Part shown: positions 3,881-55,360 of the stretch, piece by piece
Position numbering within the stretch: position 1 is the stretch's first letter
Layout: each line of letters begins with the position of its first letter
DNA from: Candidatus Latescibacterota bacterium
GTDB taxonomy: Bacteria > Latescibacterota > UBA2968 > UBA8231
NCBI GenBank assembly: GCA_965217585.1
Contig: OZ244561.1
Location: 3,520,001-3,584,000, forward strand
Direction of reading: 5' to 3'
Length of the DNA: 64,000 nucleotides
Made by a program: the position numbers and the translations under genes
Notes under the pieces: model-generated
What the model was told of the DNA's origin: nothing
What the model saw: the letters and a program-made list of their open reading frames with translations, nothing else
Databases searched by the model: none

Positions 3881-4837
3881 CTATTGGGGCAGGCTAACCA
3901 AGCGCTCGGCAAGCTCTAGCGCATCCACCGGCCAGTAGCACTCTGGGCGAGGTCGACAGACATTGGGATTCCCCTCCTTTGGTCGGCAGTTCAAGAGCCG
4001 GTCCACCCACCGTTCGGGCACGGCCTCTCGTCCATGCACTGCGCCCAGAAGCGCTCCGCAGATGGCGGCGTTGGTGTCGGTGTCACCGCCCCTATGGACG
4101 GTATCCACGACAGCTTCCTCGAAATTCTCGGCGTGGAGCAGTTGCCATAGCGCGTTACGGAACGCCGTCAGAACCCAGCCTTGCTGGTGCATATACTCCG
4201 CGGGCGGTGCCGTGGCTGCGCCGTTGATGGCCGACATGAGCGTCGGTTCCGCTGGGATATTCTCGGCCCACGTCTTTATCCGTTCGTATAGCTCCTGCGG
4301 TTCGCATCCGGTGCGGACCGCGTAGGCGATGGCCGAGGCGTATAGCGAATTGGCTTGCTGGCAGACCGGATGGGGATGCGTGAGCGCCGCGTCCTCGCAC
4401 GCCCATTCCGCCACCTTTTCTAATCCGTAGTTCGCGCCGAAGATGCCCAGCGGGCTGATCCGCATCATGGCTCCATTCGCTTGGCTGTTCCAATCGCGTT
4501 CTCCTAGGAGACCGCTGCGGGTGGTGAAACCGCAGTCGAATGGACCAGAGTTCAACCAGCCAATATAGGCTTCGAGGGCAAGCGTTTGATCGTATCTCTT
4601 GTGCTGCGCCAGTACTCGGGCTAGGGCTAGCGCCATTTCGGAATCGTCCGTCGGCTGCCCAGCGATCGTATCCCAGGTCTCGCTGTCCTCGAGATCTCGG
4701 ACTCCGGCGGGGTACTTGAACTGAATATCCTCGGGGCTTTGGAATTCCACTAGGCTACCCAGCGAATCCCCTGCAAGTTGGCCCAGCAAGCAACCTTGAG
4801 CTCGAAAGAGGATGCGGTCTCTTTGCATATTAGTCAT
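3881..4837 (-). CDS. ADP-ribosylglycohydrolase (DraG/ARH family)
   Basis: GQLAGDSLG, GQPTDDSEMA, ANGAMMRISP, GGDTDTNAAICGALLGA. Confidence 0.92.
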   Translation of the reverse strand: MTNMQRDRILFRAQGCLLGQLAGDSLGSLVEFQSPEDIQFKYPAGVRDLEDSETWDTIAGQPTDDSEMALALARVLAQHKRYDQTLALEAYIGWLNSGPFDCGFTTRSGLLGERDWNSQANGAMMRISPLGIFGANYGLEKVAEWACEDAALTHPHPVCQQANSLYASAIAYAVRTGCEPQELYERIKTWAENIPAEPTLMSAINGAATAPPAEYMHQQGWVLTAFRNALWQLLHAENFEEAVVDTVHRGGDTDTNAAICGALLGAVHGREAVPERWVDRLLNCRPKEGNPNVCRPRPECYWPVDALELAERLVSLPQ

Positions 4838-4867
4838 TAATCATCCCTTCGTTATCCATATCCATAA

Positions 4868-6946
4868 TCAAAAGCCCATCCTGCGCGAATGGTTCGGCTT
4901 GGCTTCGCACTCGGTACGCAGCAATTCGGCGAGAGCCTTAGCGTCTTGCAGGTGGCCGAGGATTTCGGCTTTTCGGCGGACTACGGCGAAATCGCCTGGG
5001 GTTAGGGTGGAAAGGTCGCCGATTTCGGGCGGAGCTTCGAGCGCGAAATAGGTGTGGAACGCCGCTTGCGACTGGTCGGGGGTGAGATAGTCGAGTGCGA
5101 TTTTGAAGGTGAAGCGGCGCAGTGTGGCCGGGTCGAGGTTTTCGCCGAAGTTGGTCGTACATGCGAACGGCAGGGGATGGCTCTCCATCCAAGTCAGCAT
5201 TTCGTTGACTTGGCTGACCTCCCAGGAGCGCACGGCACCCCGACGGTCGGCGAGCAGGGAGTCGGCCTCGTCAAAGACGAGGATGGAGCCTTCGGCACGG
5301 GCTTCGGAGAAGGCAGCGGCGATCTGCTGTTCGGTTTGGCCGACCCACATCGACATTAGGTCGGAGGCACGCTTTTGGGTGACTTGGAGGCCGAGGCGTT
5401 CGGCTAGGTAGCGGACGAATGCGCTCTTGCCGGTGCCGGGTGGACCTTGCAGACAGAGAGAAAAATGCTTGCCGCCGCTTTTTACGATGCGATCCACGAA
5501 GCCGACCGGGTCAATGTCGGCCCGGACCAGGACGGGGTCGAATCTCTCGGGAGGCCCCTGGTTTGCGGGGGGCTTCTCGCCCGAAATCACCCGCGACAAG
5601 CTGCGTACGCCGAGGCGCACTGCGGTGAGGTCTCCGCCGCAGAGACTCGCGCCGGCGATGGCACTGGACGCTACGCCCGGCGTCACATCGAACTCCTTGG
5701 CTAGGGAGCGCGCATCTTCCTCGGTCGCTTTGATATCGTGGCGCGCCAACTCCCGTTTCCAGATGCGCTCCCGAACTCGGCACGGTGGCAGACGCAGTTC
5801 TAGGGTAAAGGTCATACGGCGCAGAACGGTTTGACAGGTCTCCCGGGCGGAGTTGGAGGTCCACAGCGTCGGTACTGGTGTGCGTTCGAGTATCCTGTTT
5901 AGGAACACCTTGGAGCCGCCGGACCGGAGATGGGAAAAGCCACCCGGTGAGAACGGCATCCAGCCTGAGCTTGGGTCCGAGAGGATGTCCTCCATCTCGT
6001 CAAAGAGCAGGATTGATCCTCGACTCGGAGCCAATAGGCGCTGGGCGAGCCGAAGTTCTTGGAGCCGCTCGCGCCGGTCGGGATCGCGGCCTCGCTCGTC
6101 CTCTTCGCCGACACTGTAGAGGTTCACCCCGAGCCAGACGGCCAGCGTCTTGCAAAACTCGGTCTTGCCGGTTCCCGGTGGGCCGCACACCAAGATATTC
6201 ACGCCCGGTGTGCCAGTGGATAGTGTGCCTTTGACCAACTTTTCGATGTGGTCACGATCCTCCTCCACATGATCGAAATCGGACCACTCTAGCTCACCCG
6301 GGGTGGCCGTGTCGAGCAGCAGGCGACACACGTCGAAATCGCTGTCGTCTGGGACGTAAGCTAGCCGGAGCAGTCGCTTGACGATCTCGATATCGCCGTC
6401 GTCATCGACGGACACAAGCCCCGACTTCACAAGCGGTGCATCGGCCGCGAATCGGGCGCGGAATGCGCCCGCCGGTACGCCGAAAATGCAGGGTAGGACG
6501 GGGTTCATGACGTTGAAAAATCTATGTCTGTGGTAGTGACGGCCAGATTCGAAAGAGTCGATCAGGGACACAAAAATCGGCTGCGTTTCGTGGCGCAGCA
6601 AAATCTCTAGGATCGCGATGTCCTCCGGCGCGAGGTCCACCTCCCGTCCGAGCCGCCGTAGCAGCCGCGCCGTGTGGTCTTTTCTCGCACCTTCGCAAGC
6701 TACTGCGTGCTCTTTTTCTAGGGTCTTTCGCAGGTGCTTCCACTCTCGTGCGGACACCTTTTCGTGGTGGCTGCTCTCCCGGTGGTCCCCCGGCTTCTCG
6801 TTCTCGTCACTGAGCGCGAGGATGTCGTGGTTCTCGGCGACCCATTCGGCCAGATCTTCCTTCTTTCCCGGGAAGGCGCGGTGGAAGCGCGAGGCGGCGT
6901 TGGAGAGGTAAAAGAGAATAAGCTGTCGTTCGTAGGCGTTGAGCAT
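4868..6946 (-). CDS. Tandem AAA+ ATPase with N-terminal helical region
   Basis: Two Walker A/B sets: GPPGTGKT/LLFDEMED and GPPGTGKS/LVFDEADS; LDPATLRRF arginine finger; C-terminal MGF. Confidence 0.9.
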   Translation of the reverse strand: MLNAYERQLILFYLSNAASRFHRAFPGKKEDLAEWVAENHDILALSDENEKPGDHRESSHHEKVSAREWKHLRKTLEKEHAVACEGARKDHTARLLRRLGREVDLAPEDIAILEILLRHETQPIFVSLIDSFESGRHYHRHRFFNVMNPVLPCIFGVPAGAFRARFAADAPLVKSGLVSVDDDGDIEIVKRLLRLAYVPDDSDFDVCRLLLDTATPGELEWSDFDHVEEDRDHIEKLVKGTLSTGTPGVNILVCGPPGTGKTEFCKTLAVWLGVNLYSVGEEDERGRDPDRRERLQELRLAQRLLAPSRGSILLFDEMEDILSDPSSGWMPFSPGGFSHLRSGGSKVFLNRILERTPVPTLWTSNSARETCQTVLRRMTFTLELRLPPCRVRERIWKRELARHDIKATEEDARSLAKEFDVTPGVASSAIAGASLCGGDLTAVRLGVRSLSRVISGEKPPANQGPPERFDPVLVRADIDPVGFVDRIVKSGGKHFSLCLQGPPGTGKSAFVRYLAERLGLQVTQKRASDLMSMWVGQTEQQIAAAFSEARAEGSILVFDEADSLLADRRGAVRSWEVSQVNEMLTWMESHPLPFACTTNFGENLDPATLRRFTFKIALDYLTPDQSQAAFHTYFALEAPPEIGDLSTLTPGDFAVVRRKAEILGHLQDAKALAELLRTECEAKPNHSRRMGF

Positions 6947-6973
6947 GGTTTCTTCTCCGAAATGATACAGTGC

Positions 6974-7462
6974 TTACTGGGACACTAAAATCGCCAGATT
7001 GACATCTATCCCGTCAAAGTAAGATTCTAGCGCGATAGCTAGGAGGTCCCTGTTAGGGTCCGTGATCCAGAGCATACCCTCGATGATGGTGAGGATCGGC
7101 GTCTCCAACTCGTCCTCTTCGGGTACGATTGATACCGCAAACACTAAGAGATAGTCTAGCGGAATGTATGCTACTGCGTCAGGTCCGAGGTCGGGGAATG
7201 CTGTCTTGAGATAAAGGGCTTGAAAGGTTGTTGGCGTTATCCGGTCATCCTCTATGAAGATGTTGCCGTTCTCGTCATAGAGGGAACGGGATAGTTGCCG
7301 CTCGATGATGATCCCTTCTCTAGGCGGTCCGATTTCGCCTTGTGGTCCGACCTCGCCCTGTGGCCCTTGCGGCCCCGCTGGCCCCATCGGTCCCGCCGGG
7401 CCTTCGCAGGCGACAAGGCCGAAGGCCAACATAGCTACGAAAAAAGAAAAGCGAGTAAGCAC
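6974..7462 (-). CDS. Collagen-like lipoprotein
   Basis: Signal peptide with lipobox LVAC, then Gly-X-Y run GPAGPMGPAGPQGPQGEVGPQGEIGPP; SD AAGGAGG. Confidence 0.8.
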   Translation of the reverse strand: MLTRFSFFVAMLAFGLVACEGPAGPMGPAGPQGPQGEVGPQGEIGPPREGIIIERQLSRSLYDENGNIFIEDDRITPTTFQALYLKTAFPDLGPDAVAYIPLDYLLVFAVSIVPEEDELETPILTIIEGMLWITDPNRDLLAIALESYFDGIDVNLAILVSQ

Positions 7463-7494
7463 TGCACACCTCCTTAATAGTTGTGGGAAAGGAA

Positions 7495-7545
7495 ACTTAC
7501 TTAGGAGGTGCGACAGATCATGTCGCAGGCAGAAACTTTTTTATA
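7495..7545 (-). promoter_or_regulatory. Palindromic operator/promoter, copy 1 (WYL/PafBC-like geometry)
   Basis: TGCGACA-N5-TGTCGCA at 7509-7527; minus strand TGTCGC-N10-TAAGTT; ~48-bp block repeated at 8672-8719. Confidence 0.6.
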
Positions 7546-7724
7546 AAAAGATCAATTTTAGTCAAAATCGTCCGTCTGACCACGCTTGCGACTAAGGGGA
7601 TACCGGACGAAAAAGGGCCCTGTAATAGGCTCTGTATGGTTAGGAGAATTTTGCCAGGAAGGATCGGCGCATGAGGATGCTTAAGACGCACCTTTAGAAG
7701 GCAGGTATCGATGGTGCGGGAGGT

Positions 7725-8279
7725 TTATGCATCTTTCAACTCTAACAAAAGATCAAAGAGAGCTTCTGCTGTCTTGAGGAGAGACTTGTCATCAGACCAA
7801 ACCGGATCGCCCTCAATTTGACTTTCGTAATTCGCGTTACATGGTAAGCAGTCCGTAAAAGAATCAATGGTCCCTTTGAGAAAATTCTTGATTTTGACGA
7901 TCAGACCGTCTTTGTCCATGAGGACACCATCCTCGAATAAGGCTAAGAGGGCAATACCCACACGATTGAGATCGTGTTTAGTATCCCAAAAATCGTGTTC
8001 AATATAGTCATAATCCTCATCCCCCCAATCCTCATTCTTTTTGAGCCATTTTTCGATTTTGACAACCATCTCGGCACTGTTCACGAAGACATCATCCTCG
8101 AACAAGGCCAAGAGGGCTTCTTTGATTTTGACGATCAGACCGTCTTTGTCCATGAGGATGCCATCCTCGAATAAGGCCAAGAGGGCAAGGGCCGCACGCT
8201 CGGCATCATATAGCAACCCTAAATCATTCACAAGGTGATCCGCAGATGGACGCAGACAGACGCAGAATAGTAGAAACAA
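7725..8279 (-). CDS. Hypothetical acidic protein with three internal ~22-aa repeats (start uncertain)
   Basis: ALLALFEDG(I/V)LMDKDGLIVKIK twice and ALLALFEDDVFVNSAEMVVKIE once; repeats visible in the DNA. Confidence 0.5.
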   Translation of the reverse strand: MFLLFCVCLRPSADHLVNDLGLLYDAERAALALLALFEDGILMDKDGLIVKIKEALLALFEDDVFVNSAEMVVKIEKWLKKNEDWGDEDYDYIEHDFWDTKHDLNRVGIALLALFEDGVLMDKDGLIVKIKNFLKGTIDSFTDCLPCNANYESQIEGDPVWSDDKSLLKTAEALFDLLLELKDA

Positions 8280-46151: not shown

Positions 46152-48419
46152 TTATTCGATCTCTGAGGTATATATCGGCTCGGGAATGCCTTCAAGCGAA
46201 CAGAAATTGCTCACTTGGTCAGCTAAGACCTTACCAGCAGGCGCATTGCCGTTGGGATAAATCCTAAAGCTATGTATATCCGCTTGGCTTGCGTCTACTT
46301 CATATCCTAGATCGGCTAATGCTTGAATAGTTATTGCGGTTAAGGCGGCACTGCCTCCAGAGGCGTTGGTGGACATTAGTTCATTGTACATGACTGCACC
46401 GCGCCAATGATGAGGTGTAGGTCCTTGTTCGACGGGAACCTTTTTGCCTCTATAGCTTTGTCCCCCCAAATCATTAAAGGCTTGAATCGCTCTTGAGCCG
46501 ATAAAGTGCGTATCGGATACGTAATCGGTTTCTGAGCCAGGATTTTTTAGTAATCCTAGCTCATCCCATATCGTTCCGATTCCAAGAACATGGCCTATTT
46601 CATGTACGAGCACTAATTCATGCAACCATCCACTTTTGGCTATTTCTACGCATCCAATAGCGGGCAGTTGACTGTCTCGTACTAAATGTGGATAGCCTTT
46701 CCCAAGAGGGCCGTCCTCTTCATGTTCAAAGACCGTTACATAAATACGCAGGTCGTCAATTTTATCACCGGCTGCAATATGGATGGGTTGGTTCCCACAC
46801 GCCGATTGGAAATCATGCTTGAGTGTGTAGTCAGGTATATCCTGTTGAATGATTTGTTCCCAACGCGTTCTTACAGGATCCCAATAGAAAGGAATACCAC
46901 CTGGAAGATCATCGAAAAATTCATTCGCTTCGCCAAGAAAGACGAACTCAATATTAAAGGTCCCCGCAGGAAAATCCCAGTGAACAACTGTTCCACGAGC
47001 CTGTAAGGCGGGTATTGTCTTTTTAATAGAATTCTCTGAGAGGGACGAGCCTCGCAAGTCCACGTATTCTAACATCAGATTTTCTAAGGGAGTAATGTCT
47101 TCTAAGCTTTCAGCAGTTACCTCGGGAAAGGAAAAGTCAAGTGTCTTAAGGTTGGTCAGGTGTTGCATAACGGAAATATCCGTTAGTTTGGGAACTCTTA
47201 TAACTAGGACGCTAAGACTCGTCAAGCCTTGCAATCCTGAAATAGCGGTAAGCAAAGGCCCATCTATATGTAATTGGTTGAGATGCTTTAAGTTGTTCAA
47301 AGATGGCAAACTAGCCGCATGGGTTCTCAACGATAGCCACTCTAGGTTAGTTAATTGAGAAAGAGCATCCGCATTTTGAATTGGGTGGCCACGTACACTC
47401 AGAGATTTAAGTTTCGTCAACGACGCAAGAGGTGCGATCCCGGTTAGTTTACCTATAATCTCCTCTTCAAATGAACCATCTGCATAATGATGTAAAAGTT
47501 CACCGCCACTAATGTATAACTCTGTTAGATTCGTGGCCGCTTCCATCCCTGTTAGAGAGACGATCTCTTTATTTTCGATAGTCAACCGTTCCAAAGAAGC
47601 CATATCGCCCCAAGTAATCGTTGCCCCCGATTGTTTGTTGAGGGCTTCTTCGAGAATTGTTCTAAGCGCCTGATCGGGGACTGAAACAGGGCTGTTTTGA
47701 TCGACTACTACAGAGAATGTATTCTGATTATCAGCCTCCGTCTGGGTCGTAAATTGATGTCCCTCTATCCACTCGGATGCCCCCTGACTGTTTTCGGCTC
47801 GCACGGCCCAGCGATACGTCGTGTTCGGCTCCAATTCACTGATGGTATTATATAGTCCCGTCCCTCTATGCGGTTCGAGTTGCCAACGACCGTTGGGCAC
47901 CTTCTTGTAGTTTAGATCGTAGTCGGTCGCTCCTTCAGAGGCGTCCCACCGAACCGTACACTCCGAACTGGTTGGCGTGTCGAATCGCAGATTGGTTGGC
48001 GGGGCCGGATTTGCCAAAGTAGCTACCGAGGTGTCATCCTCCGTCTGGGTCGTAAATTGAGGTCCTTCTACCCACGCGGATGCTCCCTGACTATTTTCGG
48101 CTCGCACAGCCCAACGATACGTCGTATTCGGCTCCAATTCATTGATGGTATTGTATAGTCTCGTCCCTTTATGCGGTTCGAGTTGCCAACGACCGTTGGG
48201 CACCTTCTTGTAGTTTAGATCGTAGTCAGTCGCTCCTTCAGAGACATCCCAGCGCACGCGACAGGAGGTACTAGTGGGATCGTCGAATCGCAGGTTGGTA
48301 GGCGGAGCCGGGTTTGCCAAAGCAGCTACTGTTTTGCCAGCTGGTGAAAGCGGCGCGGGTTTATCCTTCGAGCAGGAAAGGGCTAAAAACGATAGGGCGA
48401 GCAAGATAATGCGTAGCAT
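46152..48419 (-). CDS. Lipoprotein: 2x fibronectin III, LRR, leishmanolysin-like (M8) zinc protease
   Basis: Lipobox ALSC; PTNL...YRWAVRAEN twice; LTGMEAATNLTEL and LTNLEWLSL repeats; HEIGHVLGIG, HW...NELMS. Confidence 0.88.
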   Translation of the reverse strand: MLRIILLALSFLALSCSKDKPAPLSPAGKTVAALANPAPPTNLRFDDPTSTSCRVRWDVSEGATDYDLNYKKVPNGRWQLEPHKGTRLYNTINELEPNTTYRWAVRAENSQGASAWVEGPQFTTQTEDDTSVATLANPAPPTNLRFDTPTSSECTVRWDASEGATDYDLNYKKVPNGRWQLEPHRGTGLYNTISELEPNTTYRWAVRAENSQGASEWIEGHQFTTQTEADNQNTFSVVVDQNSPVSVPDQALRTILEEALNKQSGATITWGDMASLERLTIENKEIVSLTGMEAATNLTELYISGGELLHHYADGSFEEEIIGKLTGIAPLASLTKLKSLSVRGHPIQNADALSQLTNLEWLSLRTHAASLPSLNNLKHLNQLHIDGPLLTAISGLQGLTSLSVLVIRVPKLTDISVMQHLTNLKTLDFSFPEVTAESLEDITPLENLMLEYVDLRGSSLSENSIKKTIPALQARGTVVHWDFPAGTFNIEFVFLGEANEFFDDLPGGIPFYWDPVRTRWEQIIQQDIPDYTLKHDFQSACGNQPIHIAAGDKIDDLRIYVTVFEHEEDGPLGKGYPHLVRDSQLPAIGCVEIAKSGWLHELVLVHEIGHVLGIGTIWDELGLLKNPGSETDYVSDTHFIGSRAIQAFNDLGGQSYRGKKVPVEQGPTPHHWRGAVMYNELMSTNASGGSAALTAITIQALADLGYEVDASQADIHSFRIYPNGNAPAGKVLADQVSNFCSLEGIPEPIYTSEIE
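47735..48329. repeat. Tandem duplication of the FN3 module (47735-48026 and 48038-48329)
   Basis: 303-bp period, near-identical DNA. Confidence 0.9.
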
Positions 48420-48457
48420 GGGTAGCTCCTTCGTCAATTTTCGGAAAGTGGGTCTTG

Positions 48458-48607: not shown

Positions 48608-48889
48608 ATGATCAAGAGCTTTGCGGACAAGCGCACTGCGGCGATCTTTTCAGGTCATGCCGTTCGCGGCATGCCCATGCAACTCCAGCGACGAGCGCGG
48701 GTGAAGCTACTGGCGATTGACGCGGCTGGTCGGCTTGGCGATCTGCACACGCCGCCCGGCAATCGCCTTGAAACTTTGCGGGCAGATCGTCGCGGTCAAT
48801 ACAGTATTCGCGTCAATGACCGATGGCGTATCTGCTTCGTTTGGCGCGATGGGGAAGCGTGGGAGGTCGAGATTGTTGACTACCATTGA
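48608..48889 (+). CDS. higB: HigB family toxin
   Basis: MIKSFADK...PPGNRLETL..DRRGQYSIRVNDRWRICF...VEIVDYH. Confidence 0.93.
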   Translation: MIKSFADKRTAAIFSGHAVRGMPMQLQRRARVKLLAIDAAGRLGDLHTPPGNRLETLRADRRGQYSIRVNDRWRICFVWRDGEAWEVEIVDYH

Positions 48890-48897
48890 GGAGGCAA

Positions 48898-49278
48898 ATG
48901 AATATGACTATCAAGCGGGAAGAACTGGACAGGCGGGAGGTCGATTTCTCGGATGTGGCTTCTGGACGACGGCTGCCGCCGGTGCATCCCGGCGAGATTC
49001 TGCGCGACGAATTCCTGACGCCCATGGAGATCAGCGTGTACCGACTTGCCCAAGCGATCAAGGTTTCGCGTCCGCGACTGAACGATATTGTGCGCGGACG
49101 CCGCGGTATCACGACCGATACTGCGCTGCGCCTTGGGCGCTACTTCGGCATGACGCCTGAGTTCTGGATCAATCTTCAGACGCGCTACGATCTCGATGTC
49201 GCCGAGCGCACGACGCGTCGCCAGATCGAGCGAGAGGTAGAGCCGCATGCTGCTCTGGACGAGACGGCCCTAGATTGA
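48898..49278 (+). CDS. higA: HigA family antitoxin
   Basis: [14 protein letters not shown]...[24 protein letters not shown]. Confidence 0.93.
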
Positions 49279-49311
49279 TGGGCGATATTCATGCCCGGCC
49301 AATCCCACCTG

Positions 49312-49394
49312 CCGCTTGGCCGCCCACACGGTGTTGTAGAGCAACAGCGCGATCGTCATCGGCCTGACTCCATTGGGCATGGGCGTGATCGCGC
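49312..49394 (-). repeat. Diverged remnant of the folD 3' end
   Basis: 83 bp matching 53133-53215 with 5 transitions. Confidence 0.92.
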
Positions 49395-49471
49395 TCTAAT
49401 TTCCCGAGATCAACAGTAGTCTGCCCCAACCGCAAGTTCCGCGCCTAACTTTGGCGGTTTAGGGTGAGATT

Positions 49472-49837
49472 TCAAACTGAGTCACTATCCTCTAAAGGTT
49501 GTTGGCTCGTCGTCAGTGAATCGGCGAGGGTGGTTACGATGGATTTCTCATCCCGTTTCGACAGCTTCCCGACTTTGCGTACCACCGATTTATTATCGAG
49601 CGTGAAGAGCTTGAGGCGGATTTTGTAAGGCACATTGAGACCGGCTTCCTGCCAATCCTCAATGACTACATCGCTTGGCCATTTGTTTTTCGTGCTCGTA
49701 ATCATGGCGAAGATCGTTTGCTTGTGAACCTTATTGAAGCTCACTGAAGAGACGACTAGCGCTGGGCGGCGTTTCTTTTCATTGAGGTCTGCGAAGGGGA
49801 AGGGAACGACGACGACATCGAACGGATCAAAGGTCAC
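49472..49837 (-). CDS. PemK/MazF family toxin
   Basis: GTG start; FDVVVVPFPFAD...KRRPALVVS...AMITS...WQEAGL; overlaps the R-M gene end by 11 nt. Confidence 0.9.
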   Translation of the reverse strand: MTFDPFDVVVVPFPFADLNEKKRRPALVVSSVSFNKVHKQTIFAMITSTKNKWPSDVVIEDWQEAGLNVPYKIRLKLFTLDNKSVVRKVGKLSKRDEKSIVTTLADSLTTSQQPLEDSDSV

Positions 49838-52800
49838 GCCAAGCCTCCTCATCTTCTGGAGAAGTCCATTCTTCGCTCATCGTCTGATAAAGACCACGCA
49901 GGTAATCGTCCTGAACTAGTGGCCAGCCGCCGTAGGCGTCTATTGTTTTGTCAATGCTGGCCATGATGCGCGGCGTCTCGGCCAAGGCCGCGCAGAGACG
50001 GCGGTAGTGGGCAATGTCGTCGTATGAGAGGGTGCGGTTTTTGCGGTCCTTGAGCCACTTCTCTGCCGACTGGTAGCCACCAATGGTGAATTCCCATGTA
50101 TCTGGTGCAACGCCGTCAAAATACTGCTCGCTGTTGATCCACACCCGCTTCTGTGACGGCGCATAACGCACCTTTTCTACGCGATTGTCGCCAGCGACCG
50201 GAAAGGCGGGGGTCTCGCCGTCATTGGCTTCCATTAAGTGCAAGGCCGTAAGCCGCTTCCCAAACGCGGCGAGCGACTCAAACAGCGCACCGCAGTTGGT
50301 CACGGGAACGCGGGGAAAATCTGACTTGAGGAAGTCAGCGTAGCGGCGGCGGTATTCTGGGCTGTGGAGCACTGCGTAGAGGTAGTGGAGTACATCTTCC
50401 GGGCCGAAGGTAGTTTTGAGGTCGCCGGTGCCTTCGGGGATGAAGTCGAGAGTGGTGGCGGAGGAGAAGGCTTTGACGAAATCGGAGTTCAGGTTGGGGA
50501 CGCGCCTCTCACCGACACGCGCAGATTTTTTTGTTGAATAGATATAGAGCGGGAAGAGACAGTTCCCACCACGTCGAAACAAATTTAAATCCGAGGAAAA
50601 TTTTGAAGCAAAAACGATCTCCCAAGTGTCGGAACCAATAACTTGACCAGCACGGCCGACGCACAACCCCAAGTTCGGGCCTGCCAACATGTGGCGCATG
50701 ACGCGCTCGCGTCTGTGGACAGCGACGTTGCGGTCGAATACTGTGGCCCGGACATCGAACGGTCGGTAGAGGACTGGTTTGATTTGCCCGCGCCAAGAGC
50801 CGCCCGCTAGTTCCTGTTTCGCCCGGTCGTACTGCCATTGATTCTGTGAACACAGACGCCATTGGGCACGTGCCTCATCTTCCGATGAGGTGGCGAGTAA
50901 ACGCTCGACTTTGGTCGCCGCTTCTTCAGGTGTCCATGAGATGGCGAATTGATCGTGCGTAGTTACGATGCCCGGTGCTGGATCGCCATTCGGCGAAAAA
51001 ATCGAGGGGATAGACCACGCCGCCTCGTACTCTTCGATCAATTCTTCGTCGCGCGGAATAAACAGATACAGCGGTGGCTTAGGTGAAAGCTCCGTCCAAT
51101 CAGTAGTTTCAGCGCTGTTGGCGGCGAGCCAGCCATATTTCCCGCCATCTGGACCCGCCTCGCGCTCGCCCCACAAGTCGGCGTGAAACACCTTGGCTGG
51201 GCCGTTGTCGGCATCTTTGCATTTGACGAACAGACCAATGGCGACCCCCTGCTGAATGTCGAACACATTTTCGTCGTTACCGCCATCAGGGGTTTGCTCC
51301 TTCTTCTTGGCGTTGCCGTGCAGATCGAGCAAATAGATCTCGTCAAAGGTTTCCATCAAGCTGCGGCGCATCCCACGAAAGGTCGGGTTGTCCAAGTAGC
51401 TGTGGTTGGTCACGAAGCCGAGCACACCCTCGCCGGTGCGCTCAATGCGCCATTGGGTAAAGCGAATGAATTTCACGTAATCGTCGCTGAGCCACTTAGC
51501 TTGCGCCGGTCTTTCTAATTCGGGGAAACCCTGCTTGTAGCTACCGATCAACTCCGCAATCCACGCGCTCTTGTTGGCGGAGTGTCCGGAATAGGGCGGG
51601 TTGCCCATCACGACCATTACCGGCTTTTCTTGCTTGGCCTCATAAGCACTGGTCGCTTCACGCACAATTTCGGGAGCAAAGAGCGGGAAGCTATGCCCTT
51701 CGTCCGGCCCTTCTAAGGCATTGGTGAGGAAGACATTAAGCCGCTCGCCGGTGGGCATGGCAAAGCCGCGGTCCGTACCGCCAATTTCGAGCGCGAGTTT
51801 TAGATGACAGATCGAATAAGGGGCCATCAGCAGTTCAAACCCGAACAGGCGCGGCAAAAGGTGCTTCTGCACGTAGCCGGGCCAAGCACCGCCTAACCCC
51901 TTCGCCTCAATGGTCTCGCGGATGGTGGCGACTACTTCGCGCAGGAAGGTTCCCGTCCCCGCCGCCGGATCGAGAATCATCACCCGCGGACGGGGAGATC
52001 CGCCGTTTTCGGACGCGACCGTTGCCGTGTCGGCTAGCCCATCGGCTAAGCCAAACCGATCACGCAATAAGTGATCCACGCTCCGCACGATGTAAGACAC
52101 CACGGGTTCGGGCGTATAGTACACGCCGCGCATCTCACGCAGGTGCGGATCATAAGCCGCCAAGAAATCCTCGTAGAAATGCACCACTGGGTCTTCTTGC
52201 CGGGTCTTCTTGCCGAACTCGGACAGGATAGACGCCATGTCCGCCCGGTCTAGCAAGTACGCCAGATCATCGACAATCCAAGCGATCCGCTCGTCCATTC
52301 CCGGGCCGGCAATCCGCCCGAAGACATCTCGCAAAAAGGGCGTGGTCTCGGCAAACGCGGCTGACTGGCGGGTAAAAGGTCCATTGGCGGGTTCGTGCCG
52401 GCACCGTGCCGCAAACAGCCCATAAGCGGCCGTCTGCGCCTGCAGATCGGCGAAGTCTGCTTCCGACAAGCCGGCGATGAGTACCTCTCGGTAGCCGGTG
52501 AGCATGCTGTGGAGGGGGCCGGCCTGAGCTTCTTGAGCAAAGATGCGCTCAATGCTGTCACGGAGTAGCCGCGCCTTGGCCGCCATGCGCTCGGCCAGTT
52601 CACGCGGCCGGCCGATGGACTGCGGGTCGGCGTCAAAGAACGCGGTGAACAATTCGGCGACTTGGCGGGTACCAGCTTGGTCAATAGCGATCCGATCTCG
52701 GCTGTCGATGTGTGCAAGCCGCGCCTTCAGGCGCAAGTCCCCTTCTACATACCAGCGAAACTCTAAATAATCGGTCAGAATCAGATTCGGCAGGCTCTCG

Positions 52801-53093
52801 CGGTAGCGCTTCAGTTGCGTGTCTTTCTCGACAAGATCTAAGGGTACGCCGACATCCTTGCATTCGACATGGCCGATGGGTACCCCTCCCCGCTCGACGA
52901 TAAAATCGGGCGCACCGCAAGCGATGCGCTTAGGCTCATTGAGGGCACGGACTTGTTGGCCACCCAACCCCTGAATCAGATTCTCAAGGGCCGAGCGGTA
53001 GCTATGCTCGGTCGCCTGCTTGGTAGCAAAGGTAGTCTTCAGGCTATTGCAATACGCCTGGAGAGGACTGCTAAGGGCCTGTTTTGTCGTCAT
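49827..53093 (-). CDS. Single-chain type IIG/IIL R-M enzyme (nuclease, N6-MTase, ISP-type TRD) with antitoxin-like tail
   Basis: APDF...HVECKD, GVYYTPEPVV, LDPAAGTGTF, GNPPYS, YLYAVLHSPEYRRRY, IGGYQ..KWLKDRK; no helicase motifs seen. Confidence 0.9.
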   Translation of the reverse strand: MTTKQALSSPLQAYCNSLKTTFATKQATEHSYRSALENLIQGLGGQQVRALNEPKRIACGAPDFIVERGGVPIGHVECKDVGVPLDLVEKDTQLKRYRESLPNLILTDYLEFRWYVEGDLRLKARLAHIDSRDRIAIDQAGTRQVAELFTAFFDADPQSIGRPRELAERMAAKARLLRDSIERIFAQEAQAGPLHSMLTGYREVLIAGLSEADFADLQAQTAAYGLFAARCRHEPANGPFTRQSAAFAETTPFLRDVFGRIAGPGMDERIAWIVDDLAYLLDRADMASILSEFGKKTRQEDPVVHFYEDFLAAYDPHLREMRGVYYTPEPVVSYIVRSVDHLLRDRFGLADGLADTATVASENGGSPRPRVMILDPAAGTGTFLREVVATIRETIEAKGLGGAWPGYVQKHLLPRLFGFELLMAPYSICHLKLALEIGGTDRGFAMPTGERLNVFLTNALEGPDEGHSFPLFAPEIVREATSAYEAKQEKPVMVVMGNPPYSGHSANKSAWIAELIGSYKQGFPELERPAQAKWLSDDYVKFIRFTQWRIERTGEGVLGFVTNHSYLDNPTFRGMRRSLMETFDEIYLLDLHGNAKKKEQTPDGGNDENVFDIQQGVAIGLFVKCKDADNGPAKVFHADLWGEREAGPDGGKYGWLAANSAETTDWTELSPKPPLYLFIPRDEELIEEYEAAWSIPSIFSPNGDPAPGIVTTHDQFAISWTPEEAATKVERLLATSSEDEARAQWRLCSQNQWQYDRAKQELAGGSWRGQIKPVLYRPFDVRATVFDRNVAVHRRERVMRHMLAGPNLGLCVGRAGQVIGSDTWEIVFASKFSSDLNLFRRGGNCLFPLYIYSTKKSARVGERRVPNLNSDFVKAFSSATTLDFIPEGTGDLKTTFGPEDVLHYLYAVLHSPEYRRRYADFLKSDFPRVPVTNCGALFESLAAFGKRLTALHLMEANDGETPAFPVAGDNRVEKVRYAPSQKRVWINSEQYFDGVAPDTWEFTIGGYQSAEKWLKDRKNRTLSYDDIAHYRRLCAALAETPRIMASIDKTIDAYGGWPLVQDDYLRGLYQTMSEEWTSPEDEEAWRDL

Positions 53094-53114
53094 ATCAAGT
53101 TCCCCTTTGCAACA

Positions 53115-53999
53115 CTACGATAGCCCGCACTTCCGCTTGGCCGCCCACACGGTATTGTAGAGCAACAGCGCGATCGTCATTGGCCCGACTCCGTTGGGCA
53201 CGGGCGTGATCGCGCGGACCTTGGGGCGCACCTGTTTGTAATCCACGTCGCCGACGAGTCGCCAGCCGCGTTCGCGCGAGGGGTCGTCCACTTGGTTGAT
53301 GCCCACGTCGATTACTACAGCCCCTTCTTTGACCATATCCGTCGTGATCCCGCGAGGAAATCCAGCCGCCACCACTAGGATGTCCGCTTGGCGCGTGAAG
53401 TGCCCGAGGTCGCGGGTGCCGGTGTGGCACAAGGTCACTGTGGCATTGGCCCCGGCCGCCTTGTGCCCCAGCAAGATGGCTACGGGCCGCCCCACGAGCG
53501 TGCTCCGGCCGACCACGACCACGTGCTGGCCGTCCACCTCGATTCCACTGCGGCTGAGGATCTGCAAGACCCCGTGCGGCGTACAGGGCCAAAAGCACTC
53601 CTCCTGTCGCACGAGGCGGCCCAAATTGACCGGGTGCAAGCCATCGACATCCTTGTTTGGGTCAATGGCGTTGAGGACTTGTTGCTCGTCTTGGCTCGGC
53701 AGTGGTAGCTGTATCAAGATGCCGTGGATCGCGTCGGCGGCGTTGAGCTGCTCGACAGTGGCTAGTACGTCCTCGGTCGCAATAGTGGCCGGCAGATCTA
53801 CTTGCTCGGAGTGAATTCCGAGGGCTTCGCAGGCTCGGCCCTTGGCTCGTACATAGGACTGCGAGGCTGGGTCGTCCCCCACCAGCACGACCGCCAAGCC
53901 CGGCACCAGACCGTGCTCCTGTTTCAGGTGCGCGATGTCCGTCCGCAGCTCTTCTTGCACTTGGGCCGCAATCGCCCGGCCATCGAGTCGCTCGCCCAT
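53115..53999 (-). CDS. folD: Methylenetetrahydrofolate dehydrogenase/cyclohydrolase
   Basis: GDDPASQSYVRAK, KDVDGLHP, PCTP, VGRSTLVGRP, ITPVPNGVGPMT. Confidence 0.96.
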   Translation of the reverse strand: MGERLDGRAIAAQVQEELRTDIAHLKQEHGLVPGLAVVLVGDDPASQSYVRAKGRACEALGIHSEQVDLPATIATEDVLATVEQLNAADAIHGILIQLPLPSQDEQQVLNAIDPNKDVDGLHPVNLGRLVRQEECFWPCTPHGVLQILSRSGIEVDGQHVVVVGRSTLVGRPVAILLGHKAAGANATVTLCHTGTRDLGHFTRQADILVVAAGFPRGITTDMVKEGAVVIDVGINQVDDPSRERGWRLVGDVDYKQVRPKVRAITPVPNGVGPMTIALLLYNTVWAAKRKCGLS

Positions 54000-55360
54000 T
54001 ACGCGCCTTTCGGTTGCAGGACGCTTTTCTGCACAACCCGTTGCAGGGCTTCGGGGACCTGTACTGTGCCGTCGGGTTGTTGATAGTTGTCCAGAATGGC
54101 GATCAGCAGTCGGCCCATCGCGCAACCTGTGTCGTTGACGAGGTGGCAAAACCCCCGCCCGCTCGCGCCCTTGTAGCGGATGTTCAAGCGCCGGGCCTGA
54201 TAGTCGGTGGCATTGGTGTCGGTCATTACCTCCATGAACTCGCCCGCCCCGGCCATCCACACTTCCATGTCTCGCTGCCGATGGCTGGCCAGATAGCCCG
54301 CGTCGCCGTGGCACTTATCGACGACCCGGTAGGGCAAGGCCAGCTTTTGCAGGAGCCATTCGTTGATTTGGCCGAATTCCTCGTACAGGGCCGCGGACTG
54401 ATCGGGCAGGCACACGGCGTTCATTTCGATTTTATCGAATTGGTGCATGCGCTTGATGCCCTTCACGTCTTGGCCCCAAGACCCGGCTTCCGAGCGAAAG
54501 CAGGCCGTATAGGCGAAGAGCTTGACGGGTAGCTCGGCTGCGTCCAAGGTCTGCTCCATGAAGTAGCTGAAATTGGCCGGCTCGGACGATCCGACGAGGA
54601 AAAGCTCAGCCCCTTCTTCTACGTTATCGGTCTTGATGGCATAGACTTGGTCGCGCCCTTCGGGAAAGTGCGAAGTGCCGTACAGCGAGCGCTCCCGCAC
54701 TAGGAGAGGCGGCACGAACATCTCGTACCCGCGCGCTAAAAGCTCGTCGATGAGGAGCTGGCTCAGGGCGTATTGCATCCGCGCGACATCGCCGCGCAAA
54801 TAGGCAAAGCGCGAGCCGGAGACTTGGCCGCCCTGCAAGGTGTCGATGCCACCTAATTTGACGCCTAGCTCTGCGTGGTGCAGCGGCGCAAAGGCGTCGT
54901 CTTGGGCGTGTAGCGGGCGCTTGGGCATGTACTGGGCACTGGTGTTCCCGCGGCCCAGTTTGTCGGCCGCTAGGTAGCCCTGCCCAGGAATCCAGGCATT
55001 CTCCTCGACGTTGTCCTCCTCACCCGCTCCGGCGGGCATGTCGGGATGCGGCCAGTTGGGAAACCAATCCATGATTCCCTGCCACTCGGTGACGACGGTT
55101 CCCAACTCGTGCTCCAGCACCCGCCCGCGCTCGCGCAACTCCCGCCCCTTTTCCCGCGCTGCGTCCGGGTCAGTGCGGCCGAGCCGCGCTAGTTGCTTTT
55201 TCTCGCTGTTGAGCGCGTCGATGTCTCGCTGCAGCTTTTGCCGCGCCGCGTCGAGGGCCAACCAGCGATCCACATTGGCTTTGGCCGGGTCAACCTTGCG
55301 CACTCGTATCGCCTCGCGCATGGCGTCGGGATTGGTGCGCACGGCCTTTGCGTCGATCAT
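53999..55360 (-). CDS. serS: Serine-tRNA ligase
   Basis: N-terminal coiled arm, CFRSEAG...RMHQFDKIE, DYQARRLNIRY, GRLLIAILDNYQ. Confidence 0.93.
   Translation of the reverse strand: MIDAKAVRTNPDAMREAIRVRKVDPAKANVDRWLALDAARQKLQRDIDALNSEKKQLARLGRTDPDAAREKGRELRERGRVLEHELGTVVTEWQGIMDWFPNWPHPDMPAGAGEEDNVEENAWIPGQGYLAADKLGRGNTSAQYMPKRPLHAQDDAFAPLHHAELGVKLGGIDTLQGGQVSGSRFAYLRGDVARMQYALSQLLIDELLARGYEMFVPPLLVRERSLYGTSHFPEGRDQVYAIKTDNVEEGAELFLVGSSEPANFSYFMEQTLDAAELPVKLFAYTACFRSEAGSWGQDVKGIKRMHQFDKIEMNAVCLPDQSAALYEEFGQINEWLLQKLALPYRVVDKCHGDAGYLASHRQRDMEVWMAGAGEFMEVMTDTNATDYQARRLNIRYKGASGRGFCHLVNDTGCAMGRLLIAILDNYQQPDGTVQVPEALQRVVQKSVLQPKGA

Follow-up and report, generated by a model that had tools for sequence, protein, structure and literature searches.

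Architecture of the locus

A two-gene unit on the minus strand of a Candidatus Latescibacterota genome places a gene for a putative Type IIG restriction-modification (R-M) enzyme directly upstream of a gene for a toxin of the PemK/MazF family, and the enzyme bears at its C-terminus a short segment homologous to the end of MazE-type antitoxins. The unit lies in a 64,000-nucleotide stretch of contig OZ244561.1 (positions 3,520,001 to 3,584,000; assembly GCA_965217585.1), referred to here as the window, and positions are counted from its first nucleotide (Table 1). The upstream open reading frame (ORF) is assigned to Type IIG because one polypeptide is predicted to combine a nuclease motif with N6-adenine methyltransferase motifs of the gamma type and a specificity domain; its PD...ExK motif is presumably of nuclease type, as in other Type IIG enzymes.

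The R-M ORF runs through ...IDAYGGWPL into VQDDYLRGLYQTMSEEWTSPEDEEAWRDL and closes on a TGA codon (49829..49827). An earlier interpretation of this DNA (hereafter the sequence-only reading) had proposed that the 29 residues following IDAYGGWPL form an in-frame tail, and the 1088-aa ORF bears this out. The pemK gene most likely starts at a GTG codon (49837..49835), a start common to all close relatives, and ends with the stop codon at 49474..49472. The two frames share 11 nt (49837..49827), with the R-M stop lying 8 nt inside pemK; the overlap described by the sequence-only reading is real, but the stop does not sit on the GTG itself as had been stated. No separate antitoxin ORF lies between or beside the R-M gene and pemK in the window's ORF list, in agreement with the earlier claim, and Pfam detects no MazE_antitoxin domain in the last 47 residues of the R-M protein.

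The toxin is a 121-aa PemK protein in which Pfam finds no NTPase domain. A profile built on it matches the structures of Bacillus subtilis EndoA and Mycobacterium tuberculosis MazF6 (E about 6e-4), and R24 and T47 are invariant in all 22 aligned homologues, R24 corresponding in the alignment to the arginine in RP(V/A)L, a motif of B. subtilis EndoA/MazF. Both residues are presumably catalytic, as in B. subtilis MazF, and from their invariance the toxin looks active.

Table 1. Positions of the features discussed, in window coordinates unless another locus is named
Feature	Position	Strand	Basis or remark
Type IIG R-M gene, 1088 aa with tail	49827..53093	-	ORF list; PADLOC REase_MTase_IIG PDLC03610, E 1.5e-275
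N-terminal PD...ExK motif, PDFIVERGGVPIGHVECK	aa 62-79 = 52857..52910	-	Regular expression on the translated R-M ORF
N6_Mtase domain of the R-M protein	aa 299-508	-	Pfam; Eco57I match too
Methyltransferase motifs DPAAGTGTF (aa 375) to NPPY (aa 498-501)	51591..51971	-	Motif search and Pfam
Type_ISP_C specificity domain	aa 707-1044 = 49962..50975	-	Pfam, E 6.9e-81
Antitoxin-derived tail, 29 aa, VQDDYLRGLYQTMSEEWTSPEDEEAWRDL	aa 1060-1088 = 49830..49916	-	BLASTP against free antitoxin
AGGAGG Shine-Dalgarno sequence of pemK, within tail codons (EEA)	49844..49849	-	6-nt spacer to GTG
pemK/mazF-type toxin gene, 121 aa	49472..49837	-	Pfam PemK_toxin, E 5.2e-15
Upstream 86-nt direct repeat copy, within folD 3' end	53130..53215		Repeat family D2, 93% identity
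Downstream 86-nt direct repeat copy, displaced native folD 3' end	49309..49394		Repeat family D2
TmtA-like gene with pemK, locus L063	G053:C1:4570000-4578500, 4251..7806		Also L100-L105, L109, L121-L123

Origin of the C-terminal tail

The tail lies beyond the point at which most homologous enzymes end. Among the best 120 of 5844 homologues of residues 700-1088 (E ≤ 0.001, among 8000 scored candidates), 23 carry the same tail and 97 do not. Most of the latter (88) end 2-12 residues past a conserved G-x-W-P motif, the window's ORF extending 29 aa beyond that end point, while another eight are extended differently, by 25-182 residues, and the last one shows a variant of the motif. The check that the sequence-only reading had called for, namely where unfused homologues end, is thereby answered: most of them stop short of the tail. 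Recurrence of the fusion in seven other species-level genomes of the genus, in addition to the 23 database homologues, disposes of an assembly artefact. An AlphaFold2 model of residues 700-1088 is confident up to a long last helix (block means 88-94), with block means of 80-96 over most of the last 180 residues preceding the tail, and falls to about 56 over the final 29 residues, a drop in predicted confidence that would fit a flexible appendage.

A source for the tail is found in free-standing toxin-antitoxin (TA) pairs of the same phylum. PemK matches occur in 56 of 168 phylum genomes searched, and the frame upstream of the toxin was read at all 30 loci listed. The nearest PemK relatives located away from the R-M gene (57-61% identical; genomes G125, G123 and G120 of the same genus) are each preceded by a 74-aa protein whose residues 4-47 match Pfam MazE_antitoxin (AbrB/SpoVT; E 2.7e-9) and whose last 27 residues read ...DDYLQGLSEVMSEWASPEDEEAWRDL. 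When the R-M tail is aligned by BLASTP with one of these free antitoxins (L021:1287-1508, aa 48-74), 21 of 28 positions are identical (75%, E 8e-14), and in L021-L023 the alignment begins one residue after the DNA-binding domain. The junction with the toxin gene is arranged alike, the antitoxin stop lying 8 nt into pemK in 22 free-standing pairs (those of G125, G123 and G120 plus 19 others), as is the case for the R-M stop. PemKs of lower similarity (38-48% identical) are accompanied by tails that keep the pattern but have likewise diverged further, tail-window identity being 56%, 41-44% and 21-24% at PemK identities of 58-61%, 47-48% and 38-45%, respectively.

A profile of the tail searched against 1.84 billion proteins returned 362 matches at E ≤ 0.001. 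Among the best 150 of these, 142 are no longer than 110 aa and 128 have an EW motif 6-14 aa from the C-terminal end, most of the latter ending in ...TLSEW.S.EDEEAYRDL; the sole match longer than 200 aa is a fragment of the present R-M protein. The motif LSEW.S..DEEA(Y/W)RDL, which the sequence-only reading had named as the ending of antitoxins paired with this PemK subfamily, is therefore correct, and the same matches point to an antitoxin origin of the tail. Judged by this homology, the tail is the predicted toxin-binding C-terminal end of a MazE-type antitoxin minus its DNA-binding domain.

Other large proteins with comparable endings were also sought. A search with the free antitoxin for longer proteins gave four matches among 35 candidates, all of which were dismissed as over-long ORF calls or fragments. 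Separately, the antitoxin motif ...TLSEWASAEDEAAYRDL also closes a 161-aa ABC-ATPase-like fragment that has a Walker A motif (P0340), which represents either another fusion or a miscalled ORF. Two R-M homologues, P0070 and P0093, one of which is named as Acidimicrobiales, have a different C-terminal extension of 42-45 aa ending in ...LAGFEFEDRE(N/S)AWR, and a third of 1315 aa (P0046) has a Peptidase_S24 (LexA-like) domain on record; these three may be further C-terminal captures.

Natural variants within the genus

The genus was sampled through 31 species-level genomes, including that of the window, each counted once; all are metagenome-assembled, with estimated contamination of 7-13%; most consist of a single long contig, and they share synteny at the locus. 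This pemK is intact in eight genomes, and all eight have the tail in frame behind an open upstream ORF. The R-M gene is full-length in five of them (G000, G137, G144, G133 and G145), and in the other three its catalytic half is gone while the tail and pemK are kept. Two of these, G134 and G140, share an in-frame deletion of about 670 codons that joins codon 8 to codon 679, keeps the original start and retains residues 679-1088 with the tail (412-aa product). The third, G146, has only a 330-aa C-terminal ORF with tail and pemK, which belongs to a different specificity allele and adjoins a transposase gene (L006 and L050); codons 1-723 of its split R-M gene still lie beside folD, about 175 kb away. 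The persistence of tail and pemK in these three genomes indicates that the pair is maintained without R-M function.

Loss of the toxin gene has taken place in two further genomes, with about six codons of pemK left in G118 and about nine in G141. The tail of G118 is intact with two substitutions; that of G141 has a CAG to TAG change at the first tail codon after ...GGWPLV as well as four further changes, and constraint on the tail appears to be relaxed once pemK is deleted. The homologue P0052 was considered as an ancestral untailed enzyme and rejected, since its ending ...GGWPLV matches the G141 stop allele and it is more plausibly secondarily untailed. G131 retains no more of the R-M gene than about 100 nt at its 5' end. 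An intact pemK with a broken tail was found in none of the 31 genomes. PemK matches of G039 and G151 that lie in long open frames were set aside, ordinary small antitoxins being present at both. The set of variants seen, comprising an in-frame deletion, a truncation with a new start and a junction stop only after pemK loss, would be expected because any mutation that ends translation short of the tail should release the toxin.

Tails are near-identical even between R-M alleles sharing just 63-79% identity over residues 700-1088, and so is that of the copy at another locus in G145; the last 75 residues are nearly identical across tail-bearing alleles. A metagenome scan with the last 150 aa yielded six loci, all distant and untailed.

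Selection on the tail and toxin

Ratios of nonsynonymous to synonymous substitution (dN/dS) were estimated pairwise by the Nei-Gojobori method over the eight carriers. The ratio is 0.18 for the 29 tail codons and 0.105 for tail codons 1-20, which lie upstream of the pemK ribosome-binding site, as compared with 0.23 for PemK, 0.20 for the 75 R-M codons before the tail and 0.42 for the 300 R-M codons before it (six genomes). Third codon positions account for 11 of the 15 variable nucleotide positions of the tail. By these estimates the tail and the fusion are evidently under purifying selection. A chance in-frame deletion, put forward by the sequence-only reading as the alternative to a functional fusion, may be kept as the origin of the arrangement; it fails as a description of its present state, since the fusion is conserved.

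These estimates bear directly on the idea that the tail is an inert relic, with PemK either inactive or neutralised in trans by another MazE-type antitoxin. The genome does hold at least one other MazE/PemK pair (L010, toxin 41% identical), and the fused copies all go back to a single event within one genus, as a relic would allow. However, the tail (dN/dS around 0.1) and PemK (0.23) are both under purifying selection, the tail decays only where pemK is gone, the catalytic-site residues of PemK are invariant, and the paralogous antitoxin at L010 has a clearly different type of tail. A relic of this kind is very improbable.

Insertion site, neighbouring genes and transcription

The 86-nt direct repeats bracket exactly the R-M gene and pemK, delimiting a cassette of 3735 bp (49395..53129) in which there is no integrase or transposase. 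The gene upstream is folD (53115..54314, minus strand), separated from the R-M ORF by 21 nt. The site is empty in G129, G142 and G124, where folD runs through its native 3' end, corresponding to the downstream repeat copy, straight into higA; in G145 the unit occupies another locus, between topoisomerase-like and methyltransferase-like genes, and the folD site is empty. R-M insertions with long target duplication have been recognised by the presence of both restriction and modification functions, an insert below 20 kb, a duplication above 30 bp and an empty site in a relative (PMC2853133), and the cassette fits that description.

Directly adjoining the cassette on the opposite strand is a HigB (93 aa) and HigA (130 aa, helix-turn-helix) pair at 48608-49278 (plus strand). 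Several relatives lack higBA as well, so that the region following folD varies in its TA and defence genes. Farther along, the gene for a 761-aa exported protein (46152..48437, minus strand) holds two tandem 296-nt copies (window 47731-48329), which are 88% identical, lie 303 nt apart and correspond to repeated ...NLRFD..TS..C.VRWD... domains of the protein.

A promoter and terminator scan of 49200-53500 gave two promoter-like hits against 1.4 expected and five terminator-like hits against 4.6 expected, and hence no usable signal. Contigs from four runs recorded as metatranscriptomes, labelled as marine or sponge metagenome or with two coded organisms, are 88-95% alike and cover window 49469-50702. 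One contig of 1125 nt (X15) spans 49469-50562 and takes in the whole pemK gene, the junction and 730 nt of R-M sequence, and another of 1310 nt (X20) spans 49731-50702; one relative lacks window positions 49353-49468. Such contigs across the junction are no proof of transcription or of one continuous transcript and count as a weak hint, as DNA may be present in such libraries.

A second capture by Tiamat-like proteins

A comparable arrangement is present in a genome from another family of the phylum (G053), in which the stop of a gene for a 1073-aa protein of Sacsin/GHKL type lies 8 nt into another pemK and an antitoxin gene is likewise missing. The protein matches the Tiamat profile (PADLOC TmtA PDLC03972, E 1.6e-63, the match covering only aa 32-696 of the 1302-position profile) and the Pfam SACS family (E 4e-15), and its gene adjoins one for a DrmD-like SNF2 helicase. 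A scan of the phylum with the last 250 aa of this protein gave 27 loci in 25 genomes. Ten of them, comprising seven full-length genes and three short remnants, have a tail of about 40 aa (...DRSDTWSEQDQKDLT.ASL.YA..LYPEEEDLV), and at all ten pemK starts 5 nt before the stop. Of the 17 untailed loci, 16 lack a pemK over a downstream stretch of at least 1392 nt. The exception, in G082, has a separate 73-aa antitoxin gene 4 nt past the stop, followed by pemK; residues 28-73 of this antitoxin are identical to the TmtA tail at 29 of 46 positions (E 2e-20), and its lack of any Pfam domain indicates an antitoxin type different from the MazE/AbrB kind.

In two of the remnants (G056 and G058) stop codons break the upstream frame about 65 codons before its end, and the tail and pemK are kept. 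Among the best 120 C-terminal homologues of the TmtA-like protein in the protein database, 42 are tailed, at identities of 54-100%, and the spread of the tailed form over clusters this diverse suggests a lasting benefit. By sequence comparison, the TmtA-like tails are an independent, parallel capture of another antitoxin type.

Proposed mechanism and alternatives

The R-M locus is probably a MazEF/PemIK-type module in which the R-M enzyme would act as the antitoxin carrier through a grafted toxin-binding tail. What has been observed, namely tail homology, junction geometry, recurrence, purifying selection and co-variation with pemK, forms the basis of this reading. An in-frame fusion would have stripped a MazE-family antitoxin of about 74 aa of its AbrB/SpoVT DNA-binding domain and joined what was left, a C-terminal segment of 28 aa, to the end of the upstream Type IIG enzyme. 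The toxin gene would have kept its original layout, with its own Shine-Dalgarno sequence inside the tail codons and the 11-nt overlap with the upstream ORF, and would be translationally coupled, PemK being made by ribosomes that have just completed the R-M-tail protein. The flexible, acidic tail may then bind the PemK dimer and block its RNase site in the manner of the homologous MazE C-terminus, so neutralising a toxin that is itself only predicted to be toxic. In MazEF itself, the MazF dimer is embraced by the acidic end of MazE; a C-terminal MazE peptide of 23 aa is inhibitory to MazF, as is one of 35 aa when it forms part of another polypeptide (PMC3281143). A predicted complex of two PemK chains with the 44-aa tail region, built from custom alignments, scored 0.75, but one unrelated control scored 0.71, and the prediction speaks neither for nor against binding.

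An active pemK would, under this mechanism, force continued translation of the R-M frame through to the tail. Loss of the R-M protein by nonsense or frameshift mutation, or loss of the cassette, should free the RNase, and the toxin would make the mobile 3.7-kb R-M cassette addictive or lock its reading frame. Antitoxin autoregulation would be gone, since both the AbrB domain and the antitoxin gene are missing.

Several points weigh against this account. A frame lock would preserve R-M function not well, given that three of the eight carriers are without catalytic domains, and a 1088-aa carrier is not obviously labile, as classical addiction requires of an antitoxin. The co-variation of pemK and tail in the genus is suggestive rather than statistical: the eight carriers and the two genomes with deleted pemK are kin, and their differences reduce to one fusion, one in-frame deletion, one truncation linked to an insertion sequence and two pemK deletions, and a random deletion such as that shared by G134 and G140 would preserve the frame one time in three. 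Conservation of the last nine or so tail codons is partly at the nucleotide level, as these also encode the pemK ribosome-binding site and start.

The antitoxin might, moreover, be a small tail peptide made from an internal start near the R-M 3' end (e.g. Met1041 or Met1073), in which case the full-length protein would be irrelevant. In-frame ATG codons do occur 19 codons upstream of the tail and inside it, intragenic antitoxins reportedly exist for Rpn proteins (a study cited in PMC12707154), and the TmtA-like remnants of G056 and G058, with only about 65 open codons before pemK, imply that a short product must suffice there. Against this, neither internal ATG in the window is preceded by a Shine-Dalgarno-like sequence, in contrast to the perfect AGGAGG of pemK; Met1041 is equally conserved where homologues lack the tail and is thus no feature of the fusion; and both the original start and the frame survived the large deletion seen in G134 and G140. 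Production of the antitoxin in this way is quite improbable.

The proposal of the sequence-only reading that the R-M protein is itself the antitoxin is favoured by the tail homology, by purifying selection and by deletion variants of the expected kind. No evidence here supports the role it attached to this, that of a guard with PrrC-like logic, in which phage inhibition or cleavage of the R-M enzyme would set the RNase free. Spelled out, the R-M-bound PemK would be a backup layer of defence: should a phage inhibit or degrade the enzyme or shut off its synthesis, the tail would release the RNase and abortive infection would follow. Such a guard is compatible with the carrier mechanism set out above, and it would call for just such a tethering of toxin to defence enzyme. 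The locus also sits in a variable defence/TA spot, with higBA adjoining and insertions and deletions among relatives, and two unrelated carriers of defence type, the Type IIG enzyme and the TmtA-like protein near a DrmD-like helicase, gained tails independently, the latter form having spread widely enough to suggest that it is of lasting use. The guarding of R-M systems, as by PrrC and PARIS, is moreover an accepted concept (PMC12707154). However, nothing observed here connects toxin release with the state of the R-M enzyme, and the tail involves no known anti-restriction target site. The pair persists without R-M nuclease and methylase domains in G134, G140 and G146, and tail and pemK persist with a TmtA-like remnant of only about 60 codons in G056 and G058, so that carrier activity is unnecessary for maintenance and the guard is weakened. 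Plain TA addiction fits persistence without the R-M domains at least as well. The guard is unlikely on this evidence, and in its PrrC-like form speculative.

Relation to known systems and implications

The module resembles MazEF and PemIK (Kis-Kid) systems in its PemK/MazF-family toxin, in the antitoxin-coding sequence that lies upstream and overlaps the toxin start, and in an acidic, Trp-containing C-terminal segment homologous to the free antitoxins of the same subfamily. It departs from them in being a fusion with neither an antitoxin gene nor an AbrB DNA-binding and dimerisation domain; the predicted neutralising segment is instead the tail of a 1060-aa Type IIG enzyme, and the antitoxin would be monovalent. 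Engineered MazF zymogens and MazEp likewise silence MazF with a short C-terminal MazE peptide, free or fused (PMC3281143), and a peptide inhibitor has also been described (PMC12557383). Those are laboratory constructs, whereas the present fusion to a defence enzyme is natural and, by its dN/dS, selected.

The PrrC/EcoprrI system similarly embeds an RNase toxin in an R-M locus, where it is presumably silenced by the R-M protein (PMC12707154). PrrC is, in contrast, an unrelated ATPase-type anticodon nuclease that binds the Type Ic enzyme EcoprrI non-covalently, involves no antitoxin-derived peptide and is triggered by T4 Stp, while here a MazF-type RNase would be linked to the enzyme by a grafted MazE tail. 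Recombination of TA parts with other domains in defence islands is also seen in fused TA systems of the CapRel type, HicA-SMC and HicA-HicB (PMC10865869). In these it is the toxin domain that is fused, or toxin and antitoxin that share one chain, whereas here only the antitoxin tail has moved onto a third protein and the toxin is separate. The R-M units with long target duplication of Nobusato, Furuta and Kobayashi have restriction and modification functions, no integrase and empty sites, as does the present cassette with its 86-bp duplication (93% identical); unlike them (PMC2853133), it also carries a toxin that would be wired to the R-M protein.

Full-text literature searches aimed at such fusions turned up no description of an R-M or Tiamat protein with an antitoxin tail, and a term search of the Tiamat preprint returned zero occurrences of MazF or PemK. 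The fusion is a real, conserved and, as far as these searches go, previously undescribed variant of type II TA architecture.

TA pairs and R-M systems are both seen as addiction and defence modules, yet as separate genes. An antitoxin peptide on a defence enzyme would provide a simple physical link between the integrity or abundance of the defence protein and activation of an RNase, and the locus illustrates a route by which a toxin could police the reading frame of a neighbouring 3-kb gene. For a single-polypeptide R-M enzyme, post-segregational killing is, by our own reasoning, not easy to achieve alone, and such an enzyme could gain addiction by a fusion of this kind. That Tiamat-like proteins made a second capture, and one more widespread, points to a principle of some generality. 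In its broadest form, which we put forward tentatively and consider unlikely, tail capture would be a recurrent route that wires MazF/PemK RNases to large anti-phage enzymes, the defence protein serving as antitoxin and as a covalent guard that polices gene loss and backs up defence by abortive infection. If so, truncation, proteolysis, shut-off or inhibition of the defence protein during infection would unleash the RNase.

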